Virus record (IMG/VR): IMGVR_UViG_3300028833_000061
Location: 64,001 to 128,000 of that record
Source: a virus
Taxonomy: Duplodnaviria > Caudoviricetes
Strand: one strand, 5' to 3'
Length of the DNA stretch: 64,000 bases
In this document: positions 1,547 to 54,707 of the stretch, piece after piece
Layout: the number at the start of each line of letters is the position of its first letter
How positions within the stretch are numbered: position 1 is the first letter of the stretch
Made by a program: the position numbers and the translations under genes
Notes under the pieces: model-generated
What the model saw: only the letters and a program-made list of their open reading frames with translations
Database searches by the model: none
What the model was told of the DNA's origin: nothing

Positions 1547-1969
1547 TTAGTACACGTTCGCTGACGTGTATTCTCCTTCGTATCTCATCTTCTTCAGTAT
1601 AGCCTTGATATTTGATCTCATAGCTATGAATCCGGCATGGCTGTCGAACAGGCTCGGGTGCCCTTCGATCTTTATGCCTGCCTTTTTCAAGCAATATCCA
1701 AGGGCCCTGCAGGCCCTGGACTTCTGGTTAATTCCAAAACTGCCACTATAGTATGTTCCGATCCAGCCTCTTCCGTCGCGTAGTATCAGCTTGCACGACG
1801 TGTAGCATGGCTTGTCGTCGAACAGCGCGATGATGTAGTCGGTCTTGTTGACGTTATCGATACCGCAGGACAGCATAATCCCGGTTGCTGCCGATATCTT
1901 CTTCGTCTCGGAATCTCGATCGATCTGTCTAACTCTTGTAAGTCCATCAGTCGATACCGACAGGGACAT
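1547..1969 (-). CDS. Hypothetical protein
   Basis: Start reassigned to MSLSVSTD (ATG 1969), preceded by AGGAGG. Confidence 0.7.
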   Translation of the reverse strand: MSLSVSTDGLTRVRQIDRDSETKKISAATGIMLSCGIDNVNKTDYIIALFDDKPCYTSCKLILRDGRGWIGTYYSGSFGINQKSRACRALGYCLKKAGIKIEGHPSLFDSHAGFIAMRSNIKAILKKMRYEGEYTSANVY

Positions 1970-2567
1970 ATGGTGCCTCCTCTTTTGGAGATTGATATGA
2001 TTCGTCAATGTCAGGCAGCTCCCACTGCATGTACCTTGCCATGTCATAGAACAGCGGCCTTACAGGCCTGACCCAGATCTGCATCTCTGCCTTTTTGTCG
2101 AGAAGCATAGCCCCCGGCTGCAGAATCCACACCGGAACGGTAGGATTGTCGTGGATGAAGACATATGCACACAGGTGCTTCGGATCGTCCTCTCTAACTA
2201 TCACGATCGATCCTATGCCATGTGTAACGGCCTCTTCCGCGAGGTCGTCAATGTTGTCTTCGACCCATTTCCTTCCGTTTTTGGCCTCTCGTATGTCTAG
2301 CGTAAGATCAGACGGTGTTCCATCTCCAGGGGTGAACGCCCCGTGCGAAACGACGTCAAGTATCTGTCTGACGTGCTGTATAACTGGCGCGTCGTAGTCT
2401 ATGTCGATGCTAAGCGCCCGCTCAACCTGCCAGAACGCGTTTGCCGTATAACCTAGGCCGCGGATTATATGTCTCGCGGCCTGGTCGTCGGCTTTCATGG
2501 TTGCCGAGGTTACGTTGTCCTTGTAGAACTTTCGCCTCTTCAGCCAAGTCTCTCGCGGATCAGCCAT
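1947..2567 (-). CDS. Hypothetical protein
   Basis: 206 aa ORF overlapping both neighbours, phage-like codon usage. Confidence 0.75.
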   Translation of the reverse strand: MADPRETWLKRRKFYKDNVTSATMKADDQAARHIIRGLGYTANAFWQVERALSIDIDYDAPVIQHVRQILDVVSHGAFTPGDGTPSDLTLDIREAKNGRKWVEDNIDDLAEEAVTHGIGSIVIVREDDPKHLCAYVFIHDNPTVPVWILQPGAMLLDKKAEMQIWVRPVRPLFYDMARYMQWELPDIDESYQSPKEEAPYVPVGID

Positions 2568-3000
2568 CTTGCAAATCGGGATGCTCGTCCAGCAGATACA
2601 CGACAGGCAGAACGCTGTTCTTCCTGTACGCCTCGACGACCGCGTCTTCCAGGTCTTCCTTGTAGTGTAGGAGCTCCCATGCCTTGTCCGCGACCCATTG
2701 CTTGTACTTGTCTACGGCGTCTGCAGGAACCCCGGAATTCTTGTATGCCTCCAGCGTCTTGGACAGATCAGAACATATTCTTACGACATCCGGTATCTTC
2801 ATTCCAAGAGATCTCAGTCTTTCGTCGACCAATCTCCTGATCTTGCCCTTGCACTCCGGGCAGAGTCCGTTGCTGTCCAGTATTCGCTCATCTGTATACA
2901 GTTCACGGCACAGCGAACACAGCTGCAGTTTACCCGCGCACTCGCCGTACGGCTTTGGCTTTTCCGACAGGCGGTACGCATCAGGTTCAGGGGTGCTCAT
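2560..3000 (-). CDS. Zinc-finger protein
   Basis: CSLC...CPEC pairs, AAGGAG upstream. Confidence 0.7.
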   Translation of the reverse strand: MSTPEPDAYRLSEKPKPYGECAGKLQLCSLCRELYTDERILDSNGLCPECKGKIRRLVDERLRSLGMKIPDVVRICSDLSKTLEAYKNSGVPADAVDKYKQWVADKAWELLHYKEDLEDAVVEAYRKNSVLPVVYLLDEHPDLQDG

Positions 3001-3310
3001 ATTTCTCCTTCATCGCCTTTGCGAATTCTTCAACCTCGCACTTCATTATGCCCGGATGGCACTTCGGGCATTCTCTCGTGTGCAGAACCTCGTTCTTCTT
3101 GATTACATATCCACTGTCGTGCGGACCTGGCAGTATTCCGCCAATCAGATGTCCGCAGTTCCTGCATACGATGACGGCTACGTCGCCGTACTTCGTACTG
3201 CAGTCGTGGCACCAGCCCGGCCTGTCTCCAGGCCTGGCTATTTCACCGAGAAGAGGCTTTCCACACCACGAGCATAGCGCGGGAGGAAGTTGTTTCTGTT
3301 CCTGTTCCAT
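2987..3310 (-). CDS. Small multi-CxxC zinc-finger protein
   Basis: Likely start MEQEQKQ (3310); CSWC, CHDC, CRNC, CPKC. Confidence 0.7.
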   Translation of the reverse strand: MEQEQKQLPPALCSWCGKPLLGEIARPGDRPGWCHDCSTKYGDVAVIVCRNCGHLIGGILPGPHDSGYVIKKNEVLHTRECPKCHPGIMKCEVEEFAKAMKEKYEHP

Positions 3311-4107
3311 CAGCACTTGAAGAAGAGAAGTTGGTTGCCTTCGGTTATACACTGTCGGCACTTGGAGCAGCCTCCTTCGAGGTTCATCCTTCCAGCGTCG
3401 ACAGGACAGCATGTTATACGCGTCTTGTCCAGCCACGTCAACACGTCCTTGTCCTTTGTAGTCCTCTTCAAGTCGTCGATCTTGTTCGTGTAGTCCTCGA
3501 GCTCCTTGCCCATGTAGGCTATCTTGTACTTGGGACTCTGGTACATTTTCTTGTCGACGAACGTCTTCCATGCCTGCTTCCAGTTGCAATGGTCTGCAGA
3601 CAGGTACAGTATGAGATTAGGAGCCTTCATCAGTATGTCGGCATATTCGAACGATCTAGTGTACGTCCAGAACTTTATGTGAGGAAACTTCTTCATGGCG
3701 GACACGAGAGCCTTGGCGTACTCTATGTTGAATACATCGCCAGACCAGTGCAGCCTGAAATATGCGTAGTCCTCGTAGTTCTTTCCGTTCTTCTTGGCCC
3801 AGGCTTTCGTCTTGGCTTCGAAGTCCTCGATCGTCTCGACTAGCTCCTTGCGTATGTCGGCCTGCGTTCCTTGGAGCTTCTTGGTGTTGTCGTCCAGCAC
3901 CTTTCCGGCTCCCTTGAAGCACTTGGCCAGGCAGAAGGCATAGCAGGTCGGATTCTTCTTTCCTTCCGGGATATGGAAGCACCCTCCCTTCTCCTTCGTG
4001 CAGCCGGGACATGTACCTCCAAGGCATGGAGGCCCGGCATTAAGACCATAACTGTTTTCGTGCGTCGGGTAGAATCTGACCTTTCGGTCGCACGCCAGCC
4101 GGAGCAT
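3310..4107 (-). CDS. GP88-family (radical-SAM-like, Cys-rich) phage protein
   Basis: TCPGCT..GGC..CYA, FRLHWSGD, FWTYTRS, NLILYLSAD and C-terminal CP..CSKCRQC match the phage gene-product-88 pattern. Confidence 0.75.
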   Translation of the reverse strand: MLRLACDRKVRFYPTHENSYGLNAGPPCLGGTCPGCTKEKGGCFHIPEGKKNPTCYAFCLAKCFKGAGKVLDDNTKKLQGTQADIRKELVETIEDFEAKTKAWAKKNGKNYEDYAYFRLHWSGDVFNIEYAKALVSAMKKFPHIKFWTYTRSFEYADILMKAPNLILYLSADHCNWKQAWKTFVDKKMYQSPKYKIAYMGKELEDYTNKIDDLKRTTKDKDVLTWLDKTRITCCPVDAGRMNLEGGCSKCRQCITEGNQLLFFKC

Positions 4108-25259: not shown

Positions 25260-25969
25260 CGGCTAGGTTGGTGGTTATCGGTCGGTTGGTCTCCCCAGAT
25301 GGAGAGTAGGGTTTCAACCGTCCGGCTGTTCTTGACCCTAGCAAATTCTAGTACCTCTTGTCCAGCAAACAATTCTGCCCTTGCTCGCTCTCCATAGCGC
25401 TCAAGCAAGTCACGGTCCAACTCCTCTGGATACACGACCCTGAACCACGCAGGCAACGAAATCATTGGATTTGCAAGTACTTGCTTCTCCGTTCTTCCGT
25501 TCAATACAAGCTCTGTAACGATCCTTTCGGACGCGTTCCACGCATCCTCTGGGTCTATTGCAGAACGCTGTTTTTCCTTGGCGTAGTGCGCTATCGCGCT
25601 GGACGTAGTCAGATTGCCTGGCAGCACGATGCCCCCGTTGGAAGCTATGGACCTGAATACCGTACTTACATAGTCTCCAGGATCCCAGCCGTGTTCATCG
25701 CAAATCTTACCGATTGCAAGAAAGCTCTTCCAGTTCCGGTGTTCCTCATACATCTTTCCGATGCCGGACCTGGACATGTTGTGTTGCTCGAAATAAAACG
25801 AGTCGAATGCCTTTCTGGCGGCAAGGTCTATGCGGAGCAGTTTGTCCTGTATCGCCAGGTCGGTCAGAGGAGGCGTTCCAACGGAGTCGTCGGGCGCGCC
25901 TTCCATGTTGCAGTCGTCTTTACCAATTCCTTGTCCAGGAACGGCAATTCCGTCAATTGCTGCACCCAT
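25253..25969 (-). CDS. Hypothetical protein (start uncertain)
   Basis: ORF between the two helicases; 5' end overlaps the SF2 helicase. Confidence 0.7.
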   Translation of the reverse strand: MGAAIDGIAVPGQGIGKDDCNMEGAPDDSVGTPPLTDLAIQDKLLRIDLAARKAFDSFYFEQHNMSRSGIGKMYEEHRNWKSFLAIGKICDEHGWDPGDYVSTVFRSIASNGGIVLPGNLTTSSAIAHYAKEKQRSAIDPEDAWNASERIVTELVLNGRTEKQVLANPMISLPAWFRVVYPEELDRDLLERYGERARAELFAGQEVLEFARVKNSRTVETLLSIWGDQPTDNHQPSRC

Positions 25970-27441
25970 TGTTGTACGAATCCGAGTTCCTTGTACGACC
26001 TCTTTCTAGCTTGCGCCGCTCTTAGATTAGGTCCTGGCTTGCTTCTTGGATCGTTCATGTCCTGAACGTCCCAGGCAGGCCAAAACTCAACTAGATATGC
26101 GACGTCCTTACCATCTGTTCTTCTGGAAGCTCTGCCGGACACCTGCTTGGTCAGGATGTCTGACGAGGCTCCGTACGAGTTGATCACTACGTCAAGTCCA
26201 GGAAAATCTACACCGGTCGACCAGGCTCCAGAGGCTATGATCTTCATGATCTTGCGATCCCTGAAGTCGTTATAAGCCTGCTTGCGCTGTGCTGCCGACA
26301 CCGGCCCGACAGTAGGATATGTCACTTGGTACGACTCTCCGTTCCTGCCGGTTCTCCTGAACGACGTATCCGCGTGCATGTATTTGACGTCCTCGTCACA
26401 GAGCTGATGTATGTTGGATATCTGCTCGATGTGCTGGGCCATGCACAATGTCTGGATGTCCTTCTTCTGAGATCTCAGAATGTCCGATATCATCTGGCTC
26501 AGATTTGTGTTTTCCTCCAGTGCGTACTCGACCTTCTTCTCGCGCAGCTTGTAGCGCATGTATCTGTCGAGCCCGATCGACGGCTCCGGCAGTGGAAGCC
26601 AGTAGACCTCTATTGGAACCAAGGCCCCTGCCCTGACCATGTCGGCATATGTCCTTCTTACAACAACAGGCCCTAGCAGACCTTCCGAGACGATGTCTCT
26701 TCCGTCTGATCGGCCCTCTGGAGTTGCAGAAACGCCATAACGCATAGCCTTCATGAACTTTGACAAAGCCTCGGCTCTTGAGTCTGCTGCAGACGTGTGC
26801 ATCTCGTCCACGATAAGAAGCCCGACGTCGTCAGGATCCAGCAGGTGCAGACTGTCCAACGTGATGCAGATGATGTCATCGGACCACTTGGACGTGCCGG
26901 ACATTATGCATCCGACATCCCTTCCTGTTATGAATCTTGCAAGCTCTTCGGCATTCTTGCGGTTGATGTCCTTCGACGGACACGCAAAAACGCTCAACGG
27001 AGTTCCTCGCAATTTCCATTGTTCTGGATCGAACGCCTTTATAATAGCCGCCGACATAAACGACTTTCCGCTACCTGTCGCGGATTCGAGTACTCCTCCC
27101 TTGGACGCGAGCATGTTATAGATAATCTCTATCTGGTAGTCTCTTGCGCCTTCTATCGCTTTCGCGTAATCAGGTTCGGGGAACGGAGTTCTGAGGTCCT
27201 TGAACTCGAACTGGAATCCTGCGCTTCTCAGGCCGTCTATGACCCTGTGCGCGAATCCAGGCATCGTCGTGAACACTCTTTCGCCGTTTACTACCAGCTC
27301 GGAGAACAGCTGTTCCTTCTGGAACTGCATCTTGCGAGTACGCACGTTGAACTCGGCCTTGTTGTAGCTGAGCTCCTTTTCAAGGAATCCTGGCGGTCTG
27401 ATTATCTCGAGCAGACCATCCTTCAACGTGACCTCTACCAT
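25864..27441 (-). CDS. Superfamily 2 (UvsW-like) DExH helicase
   Basis: RDYQ, ATGSGKS, VDEMH, SATP, TGVDFP, QVSGRASR. Confidence 0.9.
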   Translation of the reverse strand: MVEVTLKDGLLEIIRPPGFLEKELSYNKAEFNVRTRKMQFQKEQLFSELVVNGERVFTTMPGFAHRVIDGLRSAGFQFEFKDLRTPFPEPDYAKAIEGARDYQIEIIYNMLASKGGVLESATGSGKSFMSAAIIKAFDPEQWKLRGTPLSVFACPSKDINRKNAEELARFITGRDVGCIMSGTSKWSDDIICITLDSLHLLDPDDVGLLIVDEMHTSAADSRAEALSKFMKAMRYGVSATPEGRSDGRDIVSEGLLGPVVVRRTYADMVRAGALVPIEVYWLPLPEPSIGLDRYMRYKLREKKVEYALEENTNLSQMISDILRSQKKDIQTLCMAQHIEQISNIHQLCDEDVKYMHADTSFRRTGRNGESYQVTYPTVGPVSAAQRKQAYNDFRDRKIMKIIASGAWSTGVDFPGLDVVINSYGASSDILTKQVSGRASRRTDGKDVAYLVEFWPAWDVQDMNDPRSKPGPNLRAAQARKRSYKELGFVQQWVQQLTELPFLDKELVKTTATWKARPTTPLERLL

Positions 27442-37686: not shown

Positions 37687-38211
37687 TTAGTACCGATATT
37701 CAGGGATTTCCAACGTCAATCCTCCGTCTTCGTCAAAGCCGGATGTCATTATCTCGTAGTCGTAGTCCTGTATACCGGCACGCATGGCCTCGACAACGTC
37801 TTTTGGAACGTTGTGTATGTCCTTGTGCTCTCCGGTCATTCTGAAGACGACCTGTGGAATGCCCATGGAATCTGCAAAATTTATAAGATCCATCATATGA
37901 ATCTGCTTGATGAACGTGTTGGATACGATAACAGTCGCTCCACGCATCATAGACTGGATAGCACCACTGTTGCACCACTCGATCGCGTCAGGCAGTCTTT
38001 CCTTGGACCACTCATATTTTCCATTCTTCATGAAGAACTGGTCATTCTCGTAGTGAACGATACCATGATCGGACGTACTTAGCTCAAGGAGCCTGTTTGC
38101 GAACGTAGTTTTGCCTGATCCAGGTGCTCCGCGAACGATTATCAGCTTCTGAGGATGGAAAACAAACCGAAGCCACGATGTGGTTTCTGTCGCATCAAGT
38201 TTGATTGTCAT
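37687..38211 (-). CDS. P-loop kinase (AAA_33 / polynucleotide-kinase-like)
   Basis: IIVRGAPGSGKTT, ENDQFF, VIVSNTF, HNVP. Confidence 0.85.
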   Translation of the reverse strand: MTIKLDATETTSWLRFVFHPQKLIIVRGAPGSGKTTFANRLLELSTSDHGIVHYENDQFFMKNGKYEWSKERLPDAIEWCNSGAIQSMMRGATVIVSNTFIKQIHMMDLINFADSMGIPQVVFRMTGEHKDIHNVPKDVVEAMRAGIQDYDYEIMTSGFDEDGGLTLEIPEYRY

Positions 38212-38252
38212 TTTTTGGTTGTTTGGTTGGTTGTTTTTGGCGTAAAAACTAA

Positions 38253-41071: not shown

Positions 41072-41091
41072 TGGCTGGTTTGGTTTGTGGT

Positions 41092-42300
41092 TTATTTGAG
41101 TTTTTTGATGAAAAGATCGCCATCGTCTGATACGTGGAATCTGAATATTCTTCCATTAGGCGACACTAAATCTATGTGCTCGACCGGCGTATTGATATCG
41201 TTGAGCGTAAGGCCTGAGTAGTTTTTGACCGTAGTCATTTGAAAAACAGTCTCAGCTACCCCCTGGACTATTACATTTTGAATATGTTCGCACGTCGTGG
41301 TGTATTCATTTGCTTCTGCTCCGTCACAAGTCACACTATAGGTCACACTCGGCGAGGCGCCTACGTTTACATGTACATCTACTGAATACTCGTGCTCCGT
41401 TTCAACCGTGAACGAGCCGTCGTACACGTTAGCCGTGTCTTGCGAGTAATCAAGCTCGATATCTGCCTTGTATATGTAGATTACACACTCGTTTGACTCT
41501 GCCGACTTTTCGCGAAGCTTTATACTTCCGCAAATCTTTGCTTTAGATCCAGAACTTGTGGAATACGTCATTATCCCGTCTATCGTAATCGAGTTAGTAC
41601 TGTAGAATAGAGCTACGGCTCGAACAGATCCTGGACGTATAGACAGATCTCCTGTCATTGAGTCTCCGGCCTTGCTGACCTTTGCAGATCCCATCGAATT
41701 GGTTGCATCTATAAGATCAGTCTCGCTAACGGCCCAAGGTGCCGAATCTGCAGGTATATAGCCTGAATCGTCTACAAGTACTGTCGATCTGAACTTCAAC
41801 GTGTTTTCGACGTCGTTTGTTCCGTCACCGAGTTGTATGGCACCGTTTGCATCTGCCTGTGCGCCCTTTCCAACAGCTACGCGGTTCGACCCTACAAACG
41901 AATAGAACTCAGGATCTGTCTCATATGTAGCTAGGTTCTGTATAAGGTTTGATACTGCAGAATCAGCGACACGCATGGCCGTGTTTGTTGCCATCTCTAT
42001 AGTTGAATCAAGCCTGAATGTCACGTTTTCAGAAAGACGGGCCAGTTCTTCCTGATCTCTGCGGCTTCCGTTTTCATTGACCCACTGAAAGACATCAGTA
42101 AACACGTGGTTTGTAGGGATGACGGAATAGTCAAGCGTGCCTTCGGGCCCGAGAAGAGGTATGTAGTTCTCGTACCTTGGAACACCACCTTCTTTTGTCG
42201 TACCCTTGGTTCTAAGAGTGGCTAGGATCGTTGACGCTGACTGCCCCATAGAGCAGGAGCACGCCACAAGAAACACAACTATTGTATTTAGAAACTTCAT
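41092..42300 (-). CDS. Fibre/adhesin-like protein with N-terminal signal peptide
   Basis: MKFLNTIVVFLVACSCSMG leader; YadA-like VAVGKGAQA..AIQLG; VSKAGDSMTGDL fibre repeat; C-terminal LVSPNG..F.VSDDGDL. Confidence 0.6.
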   Translation of the reverse strand: MKFLNTIVVFLVACSCSMGQSASTILATLRTKGTTKEGGVPRYENYIPLLGPEGTLDYSVIPTNHVFTDVFQWVNENGSRRDQEELARLSENVTFRLDSTIEMATNTAMRVADSAVSNLIQNLATYETDPEFYSFVGSNRVAVGKGAQADANGAIQLGDGTNDVENTLKFRSTVLVDDSGYIPADSAPWAVSETDLIDATNSMGSAKVSKAGDSMTGDLSIRPGSVRAVALFYSTNSITIDGIMTYSTSSGSKAKICGSIKLREKSAESNECVIYIYKADIELDYSQDTANVYDGSFTVETEHEYSVDVHVNVGASPSVTYSVTCDGAEANEYTTTCEHIQNVIVQGVAETVFQMTTVKNYSGLTLNDINTPVEHIDLVSPNGRIFRFHVSDDGDLFIKKLK

Positions 42301-43916: not shown

Positions 43917-44952
43917 AGCTCTGGATTGACCTCACTAGCGCTTTCTTGTCAGGCAGCGGAAGAGAATACAGCTCATCACGAAGCTTGGACTCGTCGATCT
44001 TCTCTGCAGTCTTGATCCTGTCTCCGAAATCATCGCCCAGAGCATTAGTGTAAACGTCTACAGGCAGCTCAGCAAGCTTCTTCAGGCTGAACACGTGTCC
44101 ACCCATCTCGACAGAATCCTTGACCTGCTCCTCGGCCTCCTTGATGGAGATGTCGAAGCAGAAACGAGAAGGAGGCAGAACTGTGCGATTGTACTGCTTG
44201 TCGAGGCCGAGATCGTGGTCAAGGTCCTCGATATAGCCTGCCAGCTTTTCAAGATTCTCGGAGAACTCCTTCGTATCGGCTTTCATAAGAGCCTCTGCCA
44301 TCTTTGAAACCTTGACCTGCGTGGCAGGATCCTTGATACGGCTTACGCGGTCTATGACGTTCTCCATTAGGAATGAGCGATCCGGCACGCCGAGTCCGGC
44401 TTCCATTCTAACGGTGTCGTTATAGTCCATTCCGTATTCTGCGCACTTCTTTACGATATTACGCGCAACCTCATGCCGATCTACCGGAAGCAGTTTATAG
44501 CAATTCTCCTCGAAATAAGCGTTTGCCTGCTTTACGCCCTCCTTGTCGAACATAGGATACAGCTTCTTGCTGAAGCATCCCCAGTTCTCGGCATAGTCGG
44601 CAGCCTGCTTTTCCTGTTTTGGAGTGCGAATGCGCTCCATCACATCATCGACATCCTTTCTGATTCCATGGACGTCGGCAGCCTTCTTGATCCTGCCTTC
44701 CATGTAGTCGCGAACAGCCTTGTTCTTATAGTCGATCTCGGCGGTCTTTGCGAAGTACGCGGCCGAAAGCCATGTGCTTGCCTTGGAGTCGAGCGGGAAC
44801 TGCCTGCGGTCTTCGTCTGCAAACAGGGTGTCCCTGAAATCGTAAGACGCGGTTTTCTCAAGCGCTTCCGAATCTAGAACGTACTTCGGAATCTGGCAGG
44901 TGTTGCCGATGTTGAGCAGAACCGCTTTCGTACTGTCGTGTAGTATGTCCAT
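43906..44952 (-). CDS. K-x-A motif-rich putative head-associated protein
   Basis: 348 aa with about 11 K-x-A sites and internally repeated FPLD..S.AYF / YPMFD..A.AYF units. Confidence 0.65.
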   Translation of the reverse strand: MDILHDSTKAVLLNIGNTCQIPKYVLDSEALEKTASYDFRDTLFADEDRRQFPLDSKASTWLSAAYFAKTAEIDYKNKAVRDYMEGRIKKAADVHGIRKDVDDVMERIRTPKQEKQAADYAENWGCFSKKLYPMFDKEGVKQANAYFEENCYKLLPVDRHEVARNIVKKCAEYGMDYNDTVRMEAGLGVPDRSFLMENVIDRVSRIKDPATQVKVSKMAEALMKADTKEFSENLEKLAGYIEDLDHDLGLDKQYNRTVLPPSRFCFDISIKEAEEQVKDSVEMGGHVFSLKKLAELPVDVYTNALGDDFGDRIKTAEKIDESKLRDELYSLPLPDKKALVRSIQSYAV

Positions 44953-45055: not shown

Positions 45056-47800
45056 ATGAAAATCGATCCCAAACTGTTTCTGAGGGCTCTAGGCTCGAGT
45101 TTACCAGAGGATCCCTCGGAACACAACCACAGCAAGCCTATAAAATGCAGGTGTCCTCTCCACGCAGGCGATGATACCATGTCCGTCATGTATACTTCGG
45201 ACGGAAATATGGTGTTTCGCTGCGTAGAGCATACCTGTAATTTCAATGGCGACGCCATCGCTCTTGTATGTGCCAGGTTCAATGTATCAATAAAGGCCGC
45301 CGTAGAGATGTTCAAGCCAGGCGGAATGCTGGCTTCATGCACCAGGGAGCCGATGAGCACCGACGATGCCAACGTATATCTAGGCAAGGCAAATACTCAG
45401 CAGCGTATAAAAAGCTACCTATCCAAATGCCAACAGTTGCTAGCCAGGAATCCGTCGAAGTGCAAGCTTAGGCCAGGCCTGACACCGGCTAATCTTAAAT
45501 TGCTTCCTCCAGAGGTCGGTTTGCTCGACATAAGCGATGACATGCCTGAGGCGTTTTCTGAATTCAGGAAGTCAAAATACAAAAAAGCGAATCTAATAAC
45601 ATTTCCATTCACTTATAACGGAGAGGTGACGCACGTGCTTGTAGTCGACGCAGACAATACTGCGTTCAGGCGTGATATCTGCATAACCAGACAAGGACTT
45701 GGTGTATTCGGCGAGGACATAACTGCCTATACCAGGAATCACACAATAGCGGCATTTACAGATCCTGTTACTGCATCTATCTACTATGGCACCATACAGC
45801 CAACCTCAAGCAGCAGACCGCCTGTCATGGCTGTTTCTGGGTTCCCACTTCCACACTCTTTCTCTGGTTTGCACGGTATAAGCATTGTAGGAACAGCCGA
45901 CGCTCCTATAACTTTGGATTATCTGCTTAGCGCAGTAGAAGCAGACGATGTCGTCGAAGGAGAAGAACTTCAGCCTTATGTAGGAGTGTACTCCTGTACA
46001 CGTGACATTCGCGATGTCAAAGAAGTCCTGTATTCTGCCATGTCGCAGGCAGAGCAGGAGGTGAAGACTCTAGAGCGGGCAATTGCCGACGAGATCAACA
46101 GGCTTGTAAAGGCAGGAAAGCGCGAACTTGTATTCGACGCGTTCCAGCAGCATCAGCCGCCTCAGCATTTAATCGAGGCGGTCGCGGAAGCCATAAATAC
46201 GTGCAAATACGACGAAGATTGCCTGTCTATCGTAAGAAGTATAGCTGTCACAGAAGTAGGAAAGCACGTACTCGGAAACAAGAAGACAATACTTTCGTCT
46301 GCTACCGGTACTATCTGTGCAGGGTCTAAAGGAGCAAATGACGTTCTGTCGAACTTTGGAATAAGGATCGACAAAAGAGTTCGCGGAGCAGATGGCTCTG
46401 ATTACTTCGTCTGCCTGATATCTCCGGCGGACAGGAGCGTTACCCCAGTATACGTAAACATACCCGAAAGTACGTGTAGCTCGGTTTCACGCATGCGGAG
46501 CCTTATATCCAAGGCATTCTCGGCCTCTGGACAGTCTCCTTACATAGCTATGTACGACGTACCTGGCGTAAGCTGGTATGACGTAATGTCAAAGCTGGCG
46601 GAGGGTTGCAGTGTCAGGAAGGAAGTGACCTCTCTCGGTGTAAACGACATAAGAGATATATACTTCCCGAACTCCATAATTTCAACTAGGACGAACGAGG
46701 TTCTCAACCAAGACGACGTTTCTCACGTCGACGAGGACGCCTGTAACAGATATTCTGCCGTGCACAACACGGAGAACGCCAACTTCATGCTGCCGTTCAA
46801 GCTGCTTGCAGAGAAATGTGACAATATCGAAGTTGGAGCGTTCTTGGCTGGCCTTATGCACTTTATGGGCCACACTGTAGTGCTTGCAAGGTACGGGCGC
46901 TGGGCATCAAACAAGGCAAAACACCTGTTTTTCGTCGAAACAGAGCCTGGCTGCTTCGATTCTGCTATAGCCAAGCTGAATTCTGTATTCACGGACGAGC
47001 CTTTAGCAGAGATAAGCACCAGCGCTCCAGTCAGATCTCTTTCAAGGTATAGCCAACTTGGAACGCTCCCGCTCATCTGCAGAATTCCAAGGGTAGACAA
47101 CATACAACGTCTGCTTAAGGCGGTTGATTCTTCCGAGTTTCCGATAATAGGGATCGTGGATTCGTTCACAGCAAGCGCTTTGAACGGCAGAGTAAACGCT
47201 GCCTACATAACTCCGTCAAACGAGGCAACAGCAGCATACTCCATACACGACAAGACCGTACACGACATCCGTGAGTCTTTTCCGCACATGCTCCTCAAGA
47301 TGTGTACAGACAGCAAGGTTCAGGAGGAGATACAGGATGGCCAGGTGTGCACGCGCGCGTTCGAGCACCTGTGCTCAGTGTTAGGCATACCCCCGTCAAA
47401 GCTGCTGCAAAACATGTGCAGTAAGGTATTTGCTGGGGCGGGAATGTCCGGCGTTGACTCGTTCTTCGACAGGCTACATTTCGGCACGACCGGAATAAGC
47501 TCGAAGATGAACCTGTGTATCGTGTACGGGAAACCGCAGCGAGATTTTAGCTTCACCAAGCGCGGACAGCACATATTCGTAATGGAAGACCGTGTTCTTA
47601 TAGGCAAATACGTGGTAGACTTGGTGAACAAGTTCTCTCACAACGTATTCAGCGTCGATCAGCTGAACGAAGAGCTTAATCAGCGTGAAATGCTTGTCGC
47701 TCTTCCAGACGATGTCGACGTCGACGAAAGCCGCTGCTGGTGCATACCCAGAGATATTTACGACGAAAAGATAATTAAAAAACCAATCCAACTTGACTAG
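45056..47800 (+). CDS. Large protein with N-terminal CHC2 (primase-type) zinc finger
   Basis: CPLH..FRCVEHTC..GDAIAL..SIKAAV; no clear TOPRIM or Walker A motif in the remainder. Confidence 0.65.
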   Translation: MKIDPKLFLRALGSSLPEDPSEHNHSKPIKCRCPLHAGDDTMSVMYTSDGNMVFRCVEHTCNFNGDAIALVCARFNVSIKAAVEMFKPGGMLASCTREPMSTDDANVYLGKANTQQRIKSYLSKCQQLLARNPSKCKLRPGLTPANLKLLPPEVGLLDISDDMPEAFSEFRKSKYKKANLITFPFTYNGEVTHVLVVDADNTAFRRDICITRQGLGVFGEDITAYTRNHTIAAFTDPVTASIYYGTIQPTSSSRPPVMAVSGFPLPHSFSGLHGISIVGTADAPITLDYLLSAVEADDVVEGEELQPYVGVYSCTRDIRDVKEVLYSAMSQAEQEVKTLERAIADEINRLVKAGKRELVFDAFQQHQPPQHLIEAVAEAINTCKYDEDCLSIVRSIAVTEVGKHVLGNKKTILSSATGTICAGSKGANDVLSNFGIRIDKRVRGADGSDYFVCLISPADRSVTPVYVNIPESTCSSVSRMRSLISKAFSASGQSPYIAMYDVPGVSWYDVMSKLAEGCSVRKEVTSLGVNDIRDIYFPNSIISTRTNEVLNQDDVSHVDEDACNRYSAVHNTENANFMLPFKLLAEKCDNIEVGAFLAGLMHFMGHTVVLARYGRWASNKAKHLFFVETEPGCFDSAIAKLNSVFTDEPLAEISTSAPVRSLSRYSQLGTLPLICRIPRVDNIQRLLKAVDSSEFPIIGIVDSFTASALNGRVNAAYITPSNEATAAYSIHDKTVHDIRESFPHMLLKMCTDSKVQEEIQDGQVCTRAFEHLCSVLGIPPSKLLQNMCSKVFAGAGMSGVDSFFDRLHFGTTGISSKMNLCIVYGKPQRDFSFTKRGQHIFVMEDRVLIGKYVVDLVNKFSHNVFSVDQLNEELNQREMLVALPDDVDVDESRCWCIPRDIYDEKIIKKPIQLD

Positions 47801-50800
47801 AACGGACATGACCTCCGCAAAGATCAATAACTTCGCGCTTTTTCTGACGCGAAAAGAGAAGAATAGGCTGCTCCACACGCAGGAGTATAAGACTGTACTT
47901 GGTGAGGCTGCGTTCATTTTTACAGCGTTGAGCGACGAGAATATAAACAGGTTGCCAGATAGCATGACCTGTATCGTAGCACCGGATATAACGGGTACAA
48001 AGCCTAGACAATTCATAGCTGATCTTGTAAATGCTGTAGAAAACGACGATGACCGTGTATACGCTTATTCAGGATATAGGTTCAAGGATGTCTTAGGTAC
48101 GGTCAATGCGCTGCAGAAAGTAGACGCGTACAATCGCATGCCGTTTGTTCCTCGGCATACTGTCGGAGATTCTCGGCCTGAAAAGATAGATGTAATAACA
48201 AACGGAACGTTTGCGTGTTCGGCCGGAACGCTGAAGTACGCCATGTCAAAGGCTGTTTCATTCGGAAGATACGATGTAAATCTCTCTGTAGCTTTCTCCA
48301 AGACAGGTACAGAGATTGTGTGCATCGTTCCGTCTACCGACTGGTCTGATCTTCCAAAGACGTCGAAGCCAGTAGAAGTCATGGTACGGATGGCCGATGA
48401 ATCTAGGTATCCTCTGTTTTCTTACAACGGATGGCATGTCGTTACAGACAAGCGCGCTGTCTCGTCAAGAGCATGCCCGTCGGATCCTGACTCCGTCGCA
48501 GTGATAATCACTACGCATAACAGGACTGATACAGCCAAGACGACAATAGAAAGTCTCGTCAGCAGGTTGAAATATCCAAAACTGCATTGGTTTATAGCAG
48601 ACGACAGGTCAGACCCGGGGCACGTTAAGCAGCTTGTGGACAAGTTCGTAGAACTAGGAATAAAAGACGTATACGTTACTGAGACAAACGACGAGCACTG
48701 GGGACTTGGGGCTTCGCTGAACAACGCGCTCACCGCTGCTTTTAAGCTGACAGACGTCGTACTTACTACAGAAGATGACTGGTATCTTCAATATGACCTA
48801 GATATTTCTGAGTTTGTAGATACCATTAAAAACGATCAGACAGTAGGTGTAATACGACTAGGTGCCGCCAATCACTTGAGCAAGTATATGGAAGAGTACA
48901 CAGACTCTCTTGCCTGTGTTTCTGTTGAAAAATATAAAAGAGACCGAGACAAGACTGGAAGACTGAACAGTCTTCAGGTGGCCATAAGGCATAAAAGGCT
49001 ATTTGATCGTATAGGGTTCTATATTGAAAACAGCAACCCTGACGTCGTCGAGACGGATATGAACTCAAGGTTCGTTAACTATGGGTTGTTAAAAATCCTG
49101 TGGCCTAAAGCATACTGTACATACGATCTTGTGTGCACAGAGAATCCGTTTATGCATTTTGGAGAGTCGACGGTTGGGCATAGTTTCGAGTACATAGACC
49201 CGTGTACGTCACTTGGATGTACCACCGAGGTAGGAGACACCTCCACCCCGTTTTTCGGGGTTGTAATACCTGTATACAAGTCATGCGAAACGCTTAAACG
49301 AGCGCTTACGTCCATAAAAAAACAGACGTACGGCGGATACAGGGTATACGTGTGCGATGATGAGTCTGGCGAGCCGTATGCGTCTGAAAACGAAAGATCA
49401 GTAAATACGATACTTGGTGCCCGCGGAAAATTCATACGAGCAGGAAGCAAGGTCTATGCCGGTGGAGCTCGTGACAAATGCCTTGAGCAAGCAGAAAAGG
49501 ACAACGTTGAGTATATTCTATTCCTGGATGCCGACGACCTTTATGCATACAACGAATTTTTTGAAGAGCTGCGTAACTGCATACACCACAACAACAATCC
49601 AGACCTTGTAGTTATTCCTGCATATTTTGAAACAACTGAAACAAATACTCTAGAGCAGGTTCTGAAGTGCAAAAATATAGAGGCATATTACAAGCAGTCG
49701 ATCCTCTGCACTCCATGGGCCAAATGTATAAAGGCCAAGCTTTGCCCTAGGTTTGAATCTGGACTACGCCGTGCAAACGATGTGTTACAGCACATGCGTG
49801 TGCTCGATACCGTAAAAACAATCGTGCCATTTAAGAAAATAGCCGTAACACGAAAGAAGGACGGCGAGACCACACTGCATGGCACGGCCAAGAAAAAGAA
49901 CATACAGTCTATCGGGGCTCTTACGGGTCTTTTAAAATGTGCATGTCAAATACTTGAAGAGAAATACGAGCATGAATACATGCGGTGGCCCGTAGCCAGA
50001 TTCGTGAAGATGATTCTTACAACACAAGTCGGAGATGTGCTAAATGCCATGGGTACAAACCTTCAGAATTTGATAGATGTCGGATCGGTGAAAAGAGTGC
50101 ATGACTCCGACAACAGGCTTGTAACCGTAGATCTTGGAGGAAGGCTCGGAAATATAATGCTGTCCATATATACATGTTTCTGGTATGCAAAGACGCACGG
50201 AATGCCTGAAGACGTAGTGAAGATAAATGAAAACTATATTCGCACTGGATTAGCAGGCGACCTTCCTGAGTATTTCAAGATGAACATGCCTATATTCAGC
50301 AATGTAAGAAAACATATAATTCCAGAAGAACAGTACAACAAAGAGGTCCAAGTTGCAGACGTGACCATGCTCAATACTCCAACGCGCTCTGTCGATTCTA
50401 TTGACGCGCTTGATCGCGTATGCTTTCCAAAATACGTGTGGCACTATCCTAAGACAGGCTCAGACAGGGAACAGTTCTGCAAACTATTCAGGGTTCCAGA
50501 GCTAGAGGACGAGCTTAGAAAAAAATACCCGGAATATTTTAAAAATAAAAACGTGGCACTGCACGTTCGACGAACAGATTTTCAGTGGTATGCAAATGGA
50601 AAATACATGGAAGATACGGCATCGATCGTTAAAAAGCTAGACGCACACGCCGGAAAGACAGTTGTCGTATTCTCTGATGATATAGATTGGTGTAAAAACA
50701 ACATAACGTCAGACAAGTGCAATATAATATTCCATGAATCGCAGACGCCTGACTGCATGGACATGGTCTTGATGAGCTTGTTCGATTGCATAGAATCTAA

Positions 50801-50882
50801 CCCGTACTCTACGTTTTCATATTGCGCGAAACTATTGAACAAAAATTTGCCACTTACACGAAGAGTCGGAAAACCGGCATAA
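47793..50882 (+). CDS. Multidomain glycosyltransferase GT2 + GT2 + GT11 (fucosyltransferase-like)
   Basis: VIITTHNR..ADDRS..EDDW; VVIPVYK..CDDES..FLDADD; GRLGN..LHVRRTDF..FSDDIDWCK..DMVLMS..STFS. Confidence 0.85.
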   Translation: MTRTDMTSAKINNFALFLTRKEKNRLLHTQEYKTVLGEAAFIFTALSDENINRLPDSMTCIVAPDITGTKPRQFIADLVNAVENDDDRVYAYSGYRFKDVLGTVNALQKVDAYNRMPFVPRHTVGDSRPEKIDVITNGTFACSAGTLKYAMSKAVSFGRYDVNLSVAFSKTGTEIVCIVPSTDWSDLPKTSKPVEVMVRMADESRYPLFSYNGWHVVTDKRAVSSRACPSDPDSVAVIITTHNRTDTAKTTIESLVSRLKYPKLHWFIADDRSDPGHVKQLVDKFVELGIKDVYVTETNDEHWGLGASLNNALTAAFKLTDVVLTTEDDWYLQYDLDISEFVDTIKNDQTVGVIRLGAANHLSKYMEEYTDSLACVSVEKYKRDRDKTGRLNSLQVAIRHKRLFDRIGFYIENSNPDVVETDMNSRFVNYGLLKILWPKAYCTYDLVCTENPFMHFGESTVGHSFEYIDPCTSLGCTTEVGDTSTPFFGVVIPVYKSCETLKRALTSIKKQTYGGYRVYVCDDESGEPYASENERSVNTILGARGKFIRAGSKVYAGGARDKCLEQAEKDNVEYILFLDADDLYAYNEFFEELRNCIHHNNNPDLVVIPAYFETTETNTLEQVLKCKNIEAYYKQSILCTPWAKCIKAKLCPRFESGLRRANDVLQHMRVLDTVKTIVPFKKIAVTRKKDGETTLHGTAKKKNIQSIGALTGLLKCACQILEEKYEHEYMRWPVARFVKMILTTQVGDVLNAMGTNLQNLIDVGSVKRVHDSDNRLVTVDLGGRLGNIMLSIYTCFWYAKTHGMPEDVVKINENYIRTGLAGDLPEYFKMNMPIFSNVRKHIIPEEQYNKEVQVADVTMLNTPTRSVDSIDALDRVCFPKYVWHYPKTGSDREQFCKLFRVPELEDELRKKYPEYFKNKNVALHVRRTDFQWYANGKYMEDTASIVKKLDAHAGKTVVVFSDDIDWCKNNITSDKCNIIFHESQTPDCMDMVLMSLFDCIESNPYSTFSYCAKLLNKNLPLTRRVGKPA

Positions 50883-50916
50883 TTACGAGAAAACAAGGTT
50901 AATTGTACAATATATT

Positions 50917-51038
50917 AAAACAGAACCGACAGGTCCTCTCCAACCTGTCGGTTCCGACGATATGTCCCACGCCCACGGGTAACCAGCCCGCTTTCTAACC
51001 CATAACCAGCAATCAACCAATACCAACCATAACCTCAC
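50917..51038 (-). ncRNA. Candidate GGUU-repeat small RNA with its own terminator
   Basis: TTGACA promoter upstream; five GGTT in about 40 nt; 12 bp terminator stem 50923-50954 followed by TGTTTT. Confidence 0.5.
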
Positions 51039-51042
51039 CTAT

Positions 51043-51072
51043 AATTTAAAACGTAAACGGTTCCAGTGTCAA
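51043..51072 (-). promoter_or_regulatory. sigma70-type promoter
   Basis: Minus strand TTGACA-18 nt-TAAATT, pointing into a gap with no ORF. Confidence 0.6.
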
Positions 51073-51076
51073 GCAT

Positions 51077-51889
51077 TTATTCTGGCTTCTTCGGGTAGCT
51101 GTACCACGGTGGCCTTAGAATAAACGGTTTAACATGCGGAGGAGGTGGAGGTGGAATCGGACAGGGAGGACGTTTGTCCATAGCTTCCTTAACAGCAGTA
51201 ACAAGCTGTTCTATTGAAGAAGCCATATCTGATAACGCCTTCTCTACATCTGTCTGCTCTGTTTCTTTATCGTCCTTGTCATCCTTGTGCGGACAGCCAG
51301 ACTTAGCGCCGACAAGGTATTCTGCTATAAGCTTTACACCTTCCTCTACGTTTCCAAATGAACTGTGCCCTGCCTCGATATCCGCAAGAACAGCACGAAG
51401 TCTCTCTTTCTGCTCGTCCGTCATCCCCTGAATGCACTTGCATACTGCAGAAGCGGCAGTCTCGTCGTCCCTGTAAGGAATATCGTGAACGGACGAAGAA
51501 GGTTCGTACTCGACTTCGAAGTGTCCAGAAAGCTGCGTCTGACGATGTCGACCGTCAATATCTGTAACGGCTAAAGAAAAAGCGTATGTGCCTCTTCTGA
51601 GGCTGTTTGACACCTTGTCAGGTACGACGACGTGCACAAGACCAGGAATTACTTCGTCTGAAAAAACGCCTTTCGACCACTCGCCGACCCAAATCGGGAA
51701 GTGATTAAATTTCGTCTCTGAAAGCACGAATTTGACGATCGTGTTCCTGTAGTTTGCAGGCATGCCGTTTGAAGGGTTTATAAGCTTTGCGTCAACCTTC
51801 CACGCGTCGCCTGAAACGACCTTGACGATGTGCATCCTGTCGCACTCAAGCGGCTTGTTGCACCCAGGAGGATTTGGTTTTACGAACAT
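51077..51889 (-). CDS. BppU-like N-terminal domain protein with Pro-rich tail
   Basis: IVKVVSGDAW..VKFVL..GTYAFSLAV..SGHFEV beta-sandwich pattern. Confidence 0.55.
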   Translation of the reverse strand: MFVKPNPPGCNKPLECDRMHIVKVVSGDAWKVDAKLINPSNGMPANYRNTIVKFVLSETKFNHFPIWVGEWSKGVFSDEVIPGLVHVVVPDKVSNSLRRGTYAFSLAVTDIDGRHRQTQLSGHFEVEYEPSSSVHDIPYRDDETAASAVCKCIQGMTDEQKERLRAVLADIEAGHSSFGNVEEGVKLIAEYLVGAKSGCPHKDDKDDKETEQTDVEKALSDMASSIEQLVTAVKEAMDKRPPCPIPPPPPPHVKPFILRPPWYSYPKKPE

Positions 51890-52867: not shown

Positions 52868-52874
52868 CCAAGAC

Positions 52875-52883
52875 AGTATAGCA
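52875..52883 (-). promoter_or_regulatory. Extended -10 promoter (TGCTATACT), probably giving a near-leaderless peptidase mRNA
   Basis: Same TGCTATACTGT as at 11077-11087; ATG lies 7 nt downstream of the -10 box. Confidence 0.55.
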
Positions 52884-52893
52884 TATATAAAAT

Positions 52894-52933
52894 GTAAAGA
52901 GAAGCCCCGAGCCCGCTTGCGCGGGCCGGGGCT
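52894..52933 (-). terminator. Intrinsic terminator
   Basis: Minus strand AGCCCCGGCCCGC...GCGGGCTCGGGGCT followed by TCTCTTTAC. Confidence 0.7.
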
Positions 52934-53595: not shown

Positions 53596-54063
53596 TTAAC
53601 GGGCTTCCATAAGGCGCTTCAACCTGGCTGGATGGCGCAGCTTTCGCAGCGACCGAGCCTCTATCTGGCGAACTCGCTCGCGCGTTATGCCGAGGCGTTC
53701 GCCGACCTCTTCGAGAGTAAGCGGCTTATTGCCGCTAAGGCCGAACCTGAGAGACATTACAATTCTCTCTCGCTCCTTAAGAGTATTTAGGACCGAGTGC
53801 ACGACATCGAAGATATCGACGATCGCCATGTTGTCGGTAGGAAGCCTGGGCTGTGTCCTTGCTTCCTCGAAAACCTCCTCGGCCAGCTTTTTCTTTTTAA
53901 GCCTCTTCGATACGTGGGCCGAATCAATAATACGGCCATTCTTTGTTGTCTGGAGGCCACATCTGTTGTGCTTGCCTCCAGTGCATTCGACACACGTGGC
54001 ACATCTGTCTGTGTCACGTTGCTCGCCCGTAACAGGGCAAAGGAATCTTGCGTGTGTTTTCAT
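53596..54063 (-). CDS. Stand-alone sigma70 region 4 protein with N-terminal Cys cluster
   Basis: LKERERIVMSLRFGL..TLEEVGERLGITRERVRQIEARSLRKLRHP; start MKTHARF after an AACC leader; no region 2. Confidence 0.85.
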   Translation of the reverse strand: MKTHARFLCPVTGEQRDTDRCATCVECTGGKHNRCGLQTTKNGRIIDSAHVSKRLKKKKLAEEVFEEARTQPRLPTDNMAIVDIFDVVHSVLNTLKERERIVMSLRFGLSGNKPLTLEEVGERLGITRERVRQIEARSLRKLRHPARLKRLMEAR

Positions 54064-54133
54064 GGTTTTGGTTGGTTGTGGTTGGTGTAAAAGTAAAGAA
54101 ACGCACGGAGACTGGTCGCGCGTTTCATCTGGG

Positions 54134-54637: not shown

Positions 54638-54707
54638 GGTGTGTAGTTGTTGTTGGTTGTCGTTGATGCAAGTAAAGAAGCGCGGATGTTGAGTCCGCGC
54701 TTCCTGG

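Follow-up and report, generated by a model that had tools for sequence, protein, structure and literature searches.

The 64,000-nt stretch of DNA analysed here (hereafter the window; bases 64,001–128,000 of the 201,401-bp IMG/VR virus record IMGVR_UViG_3300028833_000061, which is rated complete) carries a compact noncoding unit on its minus strand, in a 194-nt gap with no conserved open reading frame (ORF; 50883–51076) at one of the few points of the genome where genes converge. The unit comprises a promoter, a G/U-rich tract with five GGUU copies, a small hairpin and an intrinsic terminator. The invariant, accessible core of its predicted RNA contains the exact complement of ACCAACCA, an 8-mer found in the A/C-only, Shine–Dalgarno-less leaders of a class of genes of the same phage. 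We estimate at roughly two in three the probability that the unit is a selected RNA element. The fuller proposal, that it is an anti-leader regulatory RNA which masks these leaders, is advanced more tentatively, at somewhat less than even odds. A small RNA (sRNA) complementary to AACC-rich leaders had been suggested here by a first-pass annotation of the window.

The promoter consists of a −35 hexamer TTGACA (51067–51072) and a −10 hexamer TAAATT (51043–51048) separated by an 18-nt spacer (51049–51066), exactly where the first-pass annotation had placed them. It begins 4 nt past the stop codon of a gene for a 270-aa protein (51077–51889, minus strand), scores 10/12 and is the best promoter-like site among the 8 kb scanned. 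A genome-wide search of both strands for TTGAC[AT]-N16-19-TAnnnT returned seven matches, of which three, including this one, are intergenic. With a start near 51036, the predicted RNA would be ~120 nt long. Its G/U-rich 5′ tract (50993–51036) contains the five GGUU copies, in a sequence that had been quoted correctly before, and the first ~45 nt are G/U-rich, C-poor and weakly structured. Within the invariant core of the tract (51035–51010) lie two adjacent seeds, UGGUUGGU (51029–51022, RNA nt 9–16) and AUUGGUUGAU (51021–51012, RNA nt 17–26); the core is predicted to be mostly open, with a cost of ~4 kcal/mol for opening nt 3–27. The small hairpin, GCGGG-CUGGUUA-CCCGU (50975–50991), was also found as described and holds a sixth GGUU in its loop, while two further copies fall within the terminator. 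The latter (50917–50956, minus strand; stem 50956–50921, U-tract 50920–50917) is strong and has the GC-rich stem-loop followed by a U-tract on the transcribed strand that defines intrinsic terminators. Its stem is made of 15 pairs, including G–U pairs and 8 G–C pairs, instead of the 12 bp first reported, and it is closed by a 6-nt loop and followed by UUUU.

The tract is the densest 45-nt window for AACC/GGTT in the whole 201-kb genome, with 5 copies against 0.13 expected. In 150 genomes simulated with a second-order Markov model the maximum was 3 in 138 and 4 in 11, and never reached 5. The unit is single-copy, no paralogue having been found in the genome, and blastn of the region against a phage GenBank collection gave no match.

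A large protein collection contains 23 homologues of the 270-aa protein, and for eleven of these we examined the flanking DNA. Five related metagenomic loci (L014, L018, L019, L027 and L028; the L019 copy is partial, cut by a contig end) have the unit in the same position, and it is absent from the more distant relatives L015–L017, L020, L021, L022 and L029. In L015–L017 and L029 the convergent gene begins 6 nt past the stop codon of the 270-aa homologue, L020 has a different hairpin 2 nt past the stop, and L021 and L022 carry other genes at the site. The unit is not contained in L024 (P0011) either, and in contig P0007 the called genes overlap, so that there is no gap. Where the unit is present, the −35 and −10 hexamers are invariant (the −35 hexamer in all six copies), as is the length of the spacer, and the seed and the terminator are kept as well. 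It has the form of a bounded noncoding module: homology stops exactly past the U-tract, the DNA downstream being ~46% identical, i.e. random, and the unit remains next to the 270-aa gene even where another convergent gene is found. Three stem substitutions occur in the relatives, one in the small hairpin and two in the terminator, and all of them keep pairing; the change in the small hairpin of L014, from U to C, converts a G–U pair to a G–C pair. An exact-pattern scan of IMG/VR detected neither the core 21-mer nor the hairpin segment, and the same scan of a metagenome collection gave a single unrelated coding match (L023).

The most informative copy is that of L019, which has a background identity of 75–84% to the window. 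Both hexamers and a 23-nt core are identical at 35/35 positions, whereas only 7/18 positions are identical in the spacer, which is still 18 nt long, and 3/6 in the start region (35/35 versus 10/24, Fisher p = 1.5e-7). The comparison is a fair test because the classes of positions had been defined from the window before the L019 sequence was seen. In this one partial sequence, the pattern is what a functional promoter and an RNA 5′ end under constraint classically leave behind.

The presumed partners of the RNA are genes whose leaders consist almost entirely of A and C. In our own gene call for the whole genome, 116 of 224 genes, about half, have a GGAG- or AGGA-type Shine–Dalgarno sequence. 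Thirteen genes have A/C-only leaders, defined independently of the RNA by 25-nt upstream regions of at least 84% A+C. They form two groups: genes with long spacers in the tRNA-rich region (genome 22–57 kb), and genes of the window for a sigma-70 region-4 protein, a P-loop kinase (AAA_33) and unknown proteins. The structural part of the genome holds no clear case. Composition alone does not account for the motif, which is specific to leaders. On the transcribed strand of the 201 kb, ACCAACCA occurs seven times, each time within 45 nt upstream of a start codon, and the same location is seen for 15 of 21 copies of CAACCAA and for both copies of AUCAACCAA; leaders make up ~5% of the genome.

All five leaders named by the first-pass annotation, those of the genes starting at 38211, 41071, 54063, 54637 and 25259, indeed carry AACC repeats, are A/C-rich and have no Shine–Dalgarno sequence. 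Each of them, on the minus strand, is a predicted target of the RNA. The leader of the sigma-70 region-4 protein gene (54064–54100) is A/C-only and has two copies of ACCAACCA; the start at 54063 is confirmed by gene calls of 153–155 aa in relatives. The A/C-only leader of the kinase gene (38212–38245) also contains ACCAACCA, and those of a 448-aa gene (41072–41105, rank 3 among the targets) and a 167-aa gene (54638–54670) are A/C-only too. The AACC-rich leader of the DnaB-like helicase gene (25260–25295) falls just under the A+C cutoff for the class.

Presence of the motif follows presence of the unit in the relatives. In the syntenic 20 kb, L027 has two A/C-only leaders and two copies of CAACCAA and L028 has three and four, whereas L029, from which the unit is absent, has no A/C-only leader among 20 genes and no CAACCAA. 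The L029 ortholog of one A/C-leader gene of the window has a GAGGAAG Shine–Dalgarno sequence instead. The short loci L020–L022, also devoid of the unit, have A/C-rich leaders of the ACAAA type and no CAACCAA. This co-occurrence of motif and RNA, within one contrast between lineages, fits a linked origin.

Some further features of the leaders are worth recording. Two tRNA genes (genome 50731–50748 and 54109–54128; window approximately −13269 and −9891) end 16–18 nt upstream of an ATG, and both intervals are wholly A/C-only leader with ACCAACCA or AUCAACCAAU; tRNA 3′ processing may create the 5′ ends of the mRNAs at these two ATGs. The other two intergenic TTGAC-type matches (genome ~44538–44565 and 26373–26401; window −19462 and −37627) are each followed by an identical AGGCGCCGTTCC, one copy of which runs directly into a CCCAACCAAACC leader and an HNH endonuclease gene. 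At 54679, 54100 and 52901, each of three adjacent minus-strand genes is preceded by a GC hairpin and (C)TTCTTTAC, located ~30 nt ahead of the ATG. Such sites are terminator tails that abut the next leader, and each gene looks like an autonomous cassette. We considered TTCTTTAC as a general phage promoter and rejected it, as there are only ~10 intergenic occurrences, mostly terminator tails.

Predicted pairing between the RNA and the leaders was assessed in several ways. Perfect Watson–Crick matches of 8–10 nt to the RNA are present in 11 of 225 initiation regions, where uniform sequence would give about 5, and by the count of 7-mers complementary to A/C-only leaders no minus-strand window surpasses the tract, which shares first place. 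When initiation regions are ranked by energies corrected for the accessibility of both RNA and target, A/C-only leaders account for 12 of the 13 best, the median over all genes being +3.2 kcal/mol; the predicted duplexes span ~−30 to +5. The first-pass annotation had named as its own refutation that pairing with AACC leaders be no better than with random untranslated regions (UTRs). The mean energy of the ten best targets is −15.0 kcal/mol, as opposed to −4.0 ± 1.4 kcal/mol for random genomic seeds in the same scaffold, of which none of 18 reaches it. The predictions thus speak against that refutation: pairing is far better with AACC leaders than with other initiation regions and far better than that of random genomic seeds. 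The order of bases contributes less, shuffled seeds being only modestly worse. For the leader of the 448-aa gene, local energies are −13.9 and −11.3 for cognate pairs and −9.1 and −9.0 for cross pairs; we do not count this difference as evidence, since the energies of the whole seed do not consistently favour cognate pairs and a 10-nt match would be no surprise with such compositions.

We propose, on these grounds, that a single regulatory tract may be carried by two transcripts with a common terminator. The first would be an RNA of ~120 nt produced from its own sigma-70-type promoter, and the second the mRNA of the 270-aa gene, with the tract in its 3′UTR, a layout corresponding to that of type I 3′UTR-embedded sRNAs. 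In either form, UGGUUGGU and AUUGGUUGAU would pair with ACCAACCA and AUCAACCAAU in short, unstructured, A/C-only leaders without Shine–Dalgarno sequences. The predicted targets are about a dozen non-structural phage genes, including those for the sigma-like factor, the DnaB-like helicase, the P-loop kinase and small proteins of the tRNA-rich region. A duplex at ~−30 to +5 would block the ribosome landing site and lower translation of the class, possibly also affecting mRNA stability. We expect repression by default, since the ribosome probably has no landing site other than the leader; activation, e.g. by blocking Rho or a nuclease, is a possible alternative. The outcome would be an RNA counterpart of class-wide translational shut-off.

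Several observations weigh against this interpretation. The −10 hexamer matches at only 4/6 positions and the U-tract of the terminator has only 4 U. The units of L014, L018, L027 and L028 are 92–95% identical to that of the window, which is the background level (~92% for the S8 protease gene located nearby); because these four copies are at background, the evidence of selection comes from one partial copy, that of L019. The co-occurrence of unit and AACC leaders amounts to one contrast between lineages. Seeds shuffled by dinucleotides reach −10.0 ± 2.75 kcal/mol, with a best value of −14.7 (0/18 reach −15.0; z ~−1.8), so that affinity is mostly a matter of G/U versus A/C composition, to which the actual base order adds modestly. 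When a crude duplex energy without accessibility is used, 14 of 150 random genomic 43-mers score equally well, and covariation between RNA and targets across relatives is not consistent. Finally, the contigs found in RNA libraries bridge the upstream gene and the tract, and carry-over of DNA is possible. We considered the ends of these contigs at 50965 and 50972 as a 3′ end of the RNA and rejected them, a contig with a 30-nt overlap marking a branch of the assembly graph.

The RNA data come from three sheep-gut metatranscriptome runs of two studies, which contain parts of the stretch and were available as assembled, unstranded contigs. Two runs of one sample hold a contig of 580–586 nt, 100% identical to the window, that extends from 50965/50972 to 51544/51557 and thereby spans the last part of the 270-aa gene, the promoter and the G/U tract in full. 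At a depth of 10.3 it is the most deeply covered of the local contigs (2–7 for the others). The contigs show that the sequence of the tract is present in RNA libraries, in a form compatible with the 3′UTR of the upstream gene, and give neither a start nor a strand nor a discrete RNA. Positions 50812–50964 have no coverage in the RNA contigs, a gap to which we attach no weight. In run X2, contig record 9 matches the window over exactly 30 nt (50966–50995, the small-hairpin segment) and then continues into unrelated sequence, again with UUGGUAUU. This continuation is not in the genome studied here, and the sample may also contain another version of the unit that differs in its 3′ part.

That the tract might be nothing else than the 3′UTR of the gene at 51077 had been named as a refuting outcome by the first-pass annotation. 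The tract is at least also that 3′UTR: between 51077 and the convergent gene, nothing other than 50956–50917 looks like a terminator. The 270-aa gene shares this terminator with the unit and, with none in between, its mRNA must extend into the tract. It would follow from the stronger version of this explanation that the promoter is idle and the GGUU tract a neutral relic, for example an inverted AACC leader. Besides the bridging contigs, such a relic would account for the background-level conservation of every other copy except that of L019, for a plus strand of the tract that reads as a typical AACC leader and for the large share of pairing energy recovered by shuffling. It does not explain why hexamers and core are perfect in L019 amid a scrambled spacer, nor the cluster of five copies seen in none of the 150 simulated genomes, and a TTGACA-type match would be expected in a 194-nt gap at ~0.002. 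Moreover, relatives without the unit have a terminator or the convergent gene 0–37 nt past the stop, so the 120 nt are an added module. We regard the absence of any separate function as unlikely.

A selected RNA could have a job other than masking leaders: pairing with host mRNAs, binding or titrating a protein, or acting in cis as an antisense to read-through from the glycosyltransferase operon on the opposite strand. The evidence that the RNA unit is selected and bounded serves such a role equally well. With no T-tract on the plus-strand side of the terminator hairpin, read-through from the glycosyltransferase operon is plausible, and the resulting transcripts would carry the perfectly complementary AACC strand; in addition, the leader of the glycosyltransferase gene ranks 6th among the predicted targets. 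We nevertheless find this explanation improbable, given that the invariant seed holds exact complements of the leader-specific 8-mer, that the GGUU motifs lack the repeated hairpin-loop presentation seen in protein sponges and that no known RNA family matches. At the gathering score, Rfam recognized no family in the window or in six related loci, and at E ≤ 10 it gave just chance-level matches on the opposite strand of the terminator. CsrB-like titration, the second possibility raised by the first-pass annotation, received no support. The unit shares with CsrB and RsmZ a short motif repeated many times in a small RNA, but these sponges show GGA in several hairpin loops, whereas the five GGUU copies stand in one open, single-stranded tract and only one other is in a loop; repeated hairpin loops and a GGA-in-loop pattern are both missing.

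The plus strand of 50993–51037 is C-rich and nearly G-free and is located shortly downstream of a hairpin lacking a T-tract on this strand, at one of very few convergence points in a genome with 219 of 224 genes on the minus strand. It could be a Rho-loading (rut) site ending the plus-strand operon ahead of a collision with leftward transcription, or the GGTT repeats could be protein-binding sites on DNA where the genes converge. Both functions appear quite unlikely to us. A rut site needs composition, not an invariant 26-nt sequence, and would not require −35 and −10 hexamers conserved at a fixed spacing on the other strand; the repeat spacing of 6, 10, 11 and 7 nt is irregular for a DNA-binding array; and the unit stays with the 270-aa gene in relatives whose convergent gene differs. 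A small protein is a most improbable product of the region. The window does contain a 51-codon GTG frame, as well as a 5-codon AUG frame (MVGIG) inside the core with GAGG 2 nt before its AUG. The former crosses the terminator, and single-base indels interrupt it in L018, L027 and L028; a 2-nt spacing is too short for a Shine–Dalgarno sequence. The first-pass annotation had called the gap ORF-free, and no ORF in it is conserved: 1-nt indels shift the frames, and the ORFs differ between the window and L027.

Among known RNAs, GcvB (RF00022) offers the closest mechanistic parallel: its G/U-rich single-stranded seed pairs with C/A-rich (ACA) enhancers of many mRNAs and represses them by enhancer silencing (PMC3879156). 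The unit likewise has a G/U-rich unstructured seed complementary to C/A-rich initiation regions, a likeness of mechanism only and not of membership. It has no sequence or structure match to GcvB, and a search for this family on 50850–51120 gave no hit even at E ≤ 10. Further differences concern location (a phage genome, between the 270-aa gene and the glycosyltransferase gene, whereas GcvB is chromosomal and divergent from gcvA) and the position of the seed, which the unit has at its very 5′ end. As predicted targets, the unit has leaders of the phage itself that lack a Shine–Dalgarno sequence and in which the A/C tract would be the whole ribosome-binding site and not an upstream enhancer. Dependence on Hfq is also doubtful, the host being possibly a Firmicute.

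In its layout the unit resembles type I 3′UTR-embedded sRNAs such as DapZ (dapB) and MicL (cutC), which have their own promoter at or after the 3′ end of the upstream coding sequence and a terminator common with that gene (PMC7821165). Both features are found here, with a predicted promoter just past the upstream coding sequence and a terminator shared with the upstream mRNA. The unit differs from DapZ and MicL in that its predicted promoter lies just past the stop codon and not inside the coding sequence, and in being phage-borne with a transcript that is predicted. DapZ is said to carry a GcvB-like G/U-rich seed.

Base-pairing RNAs are known from phages as well. P1/P7 c4, P4 CI, lambda OOP, PreS and, from prophages, AgvB and DicF are, like the unit, phage-borne, and they control translation or stability by pairing. 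The c4 and CI RNAs mask sites in transcripts of the phage itself. To our knowledge, the phage sRNAs described so far come almost all from temperate enterobacterial phages and act on one or few sites. Whereas these RNAs address one or a few specific sites or host genes, the unit is predicted to address a whole class of leaders through one motif, in a large virulent-type phage. AgvB, a C/A-rich mimic that sponges GcvB (PMC12197685), is the opposite case to the G/U-rich unit. By analogy, the unit, which is no member of an Rfam family, would belong to the phage-encoded base-pairing RNAs (reviewed in PMC12197685; PreS described in 10.1101/2024.10.31.621285) and may work like GcvB or DapZ. In function only, it recalls RegA and RegB of T4, which also achieve a class-wide post-transcriptional shut-off through the initiation regions of phage mRNAs; RegB, for instance, cleaves GGAG in early mRNAs (PMC1702504). 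RegA and RegB are proteins, not RNA, and recognize other motifs.

If the masking of leaders by the unit is real, a large phage of an uncultured rumen host would translate a set of genes from Shine–Dalgarno-less, A/C-only leaders with a defined motif, and an RNA covering this motif across the whole set would make a simple temporal switch at the RNA level. What would be new is a large virulent-type phage with a leader-specific, non-Shine–Dalgarno motif class, a cognate RNA able to gate that class, and the joint presence or absence of motif and RNA across relatives. Occurring together in one lineage and both missing from the nearest unit-less lineage, motif and RNA would then provide a natural test of the birth of an sRNA regulon. 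A bolder extension, on balance doubtful, would be a private initiation code, in which an A/C tract of the ACCAACCA type replaces the Shine–Dalgarno sequence in early, regulatory and replication genes, including those for the helicase, the kinase, the sigma-like factor and many small proteins, and the anti-leader RNA, as sRNA and 3′UTR, gates the class. Class-specific translation during infection would in that case be under an RNA-only master switch, acquired jointly with the leader motif by one sub-lineage of rumen jumbo phages. The ACCAACCA leaders could be of practical interest as compact initiation elements that do not use Shine–Dalgarno sequences.

The source of the unit is a 201-kb rumen jumbo phage of the large virulent type with 16 tRNA genes, the ruminant gut being indicated as its habitat by sample names and by the RNA runs. 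The 270-aa gene upstream of the unit belongs to no Pfam or PHROG family and is preceded by a gene for an S8 protease (324 aa in the window), whose nearest cultured homologues come from Moorella phage MTATph1 and from large Bacillus phages, SP-15 among them. These homologues hint at a Firmicute-type host. The convergent gene (47793–50882, plus strand) codes for a 1029-aa multi-domain GT2-GT2-GT11 glycosyltransferase; together with a primase-like gene it forms one of the very few plus-strand units (45056–50882). Searches of IMG/VR with the 270-aa protein and with the protease returned nothing, and those with the glycosyltransferase only distant, non-syntenic matches. A profile search of IMG/VR with the 270-aa family gave three distant contigs, which have only the N-terminal domain in common and do not carry the unit.

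The 270-aa gene is itself variable. Its protein is only 68% identical in L018, L027 and L028, a value that overstates divergence, as the protease gene is ~92% identical. The C-terminal half (51150–51500) is hypervariable, with 52–56% nucleotide identity to L027 and L028 between flanks of 88–98%, a patch that points to either replacement of a cassette or diversifying selection. A domain corresponding to the N-terminal ~140 aa is found again in other large phage proteins, close to collagen-like repeats. In L022, a locus devoid of the unit, a GC-rich gap of 340 nt (2323–2661) has no called gene and no Rfam match and looks structured.

L029 lacks the block separating a 103-aa gene from the protease gene, and this block is not the same in L027, L028 and the window. 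In L014, a relative with 98% identity, the S8 protease gene (1730–3997) codes for 755 aa, with inserted intein-splicing and LAGLIDADG homing-endonuclease domains. The protease gene also has a conserved TGCTATACT ~8 nt before its ATG (window 52868–52905; L014, L018, L019, L022, L027, L028 and L029), which resembles an extended −10 element, so that the protease mRNA may be leaderless or have a very short leader.

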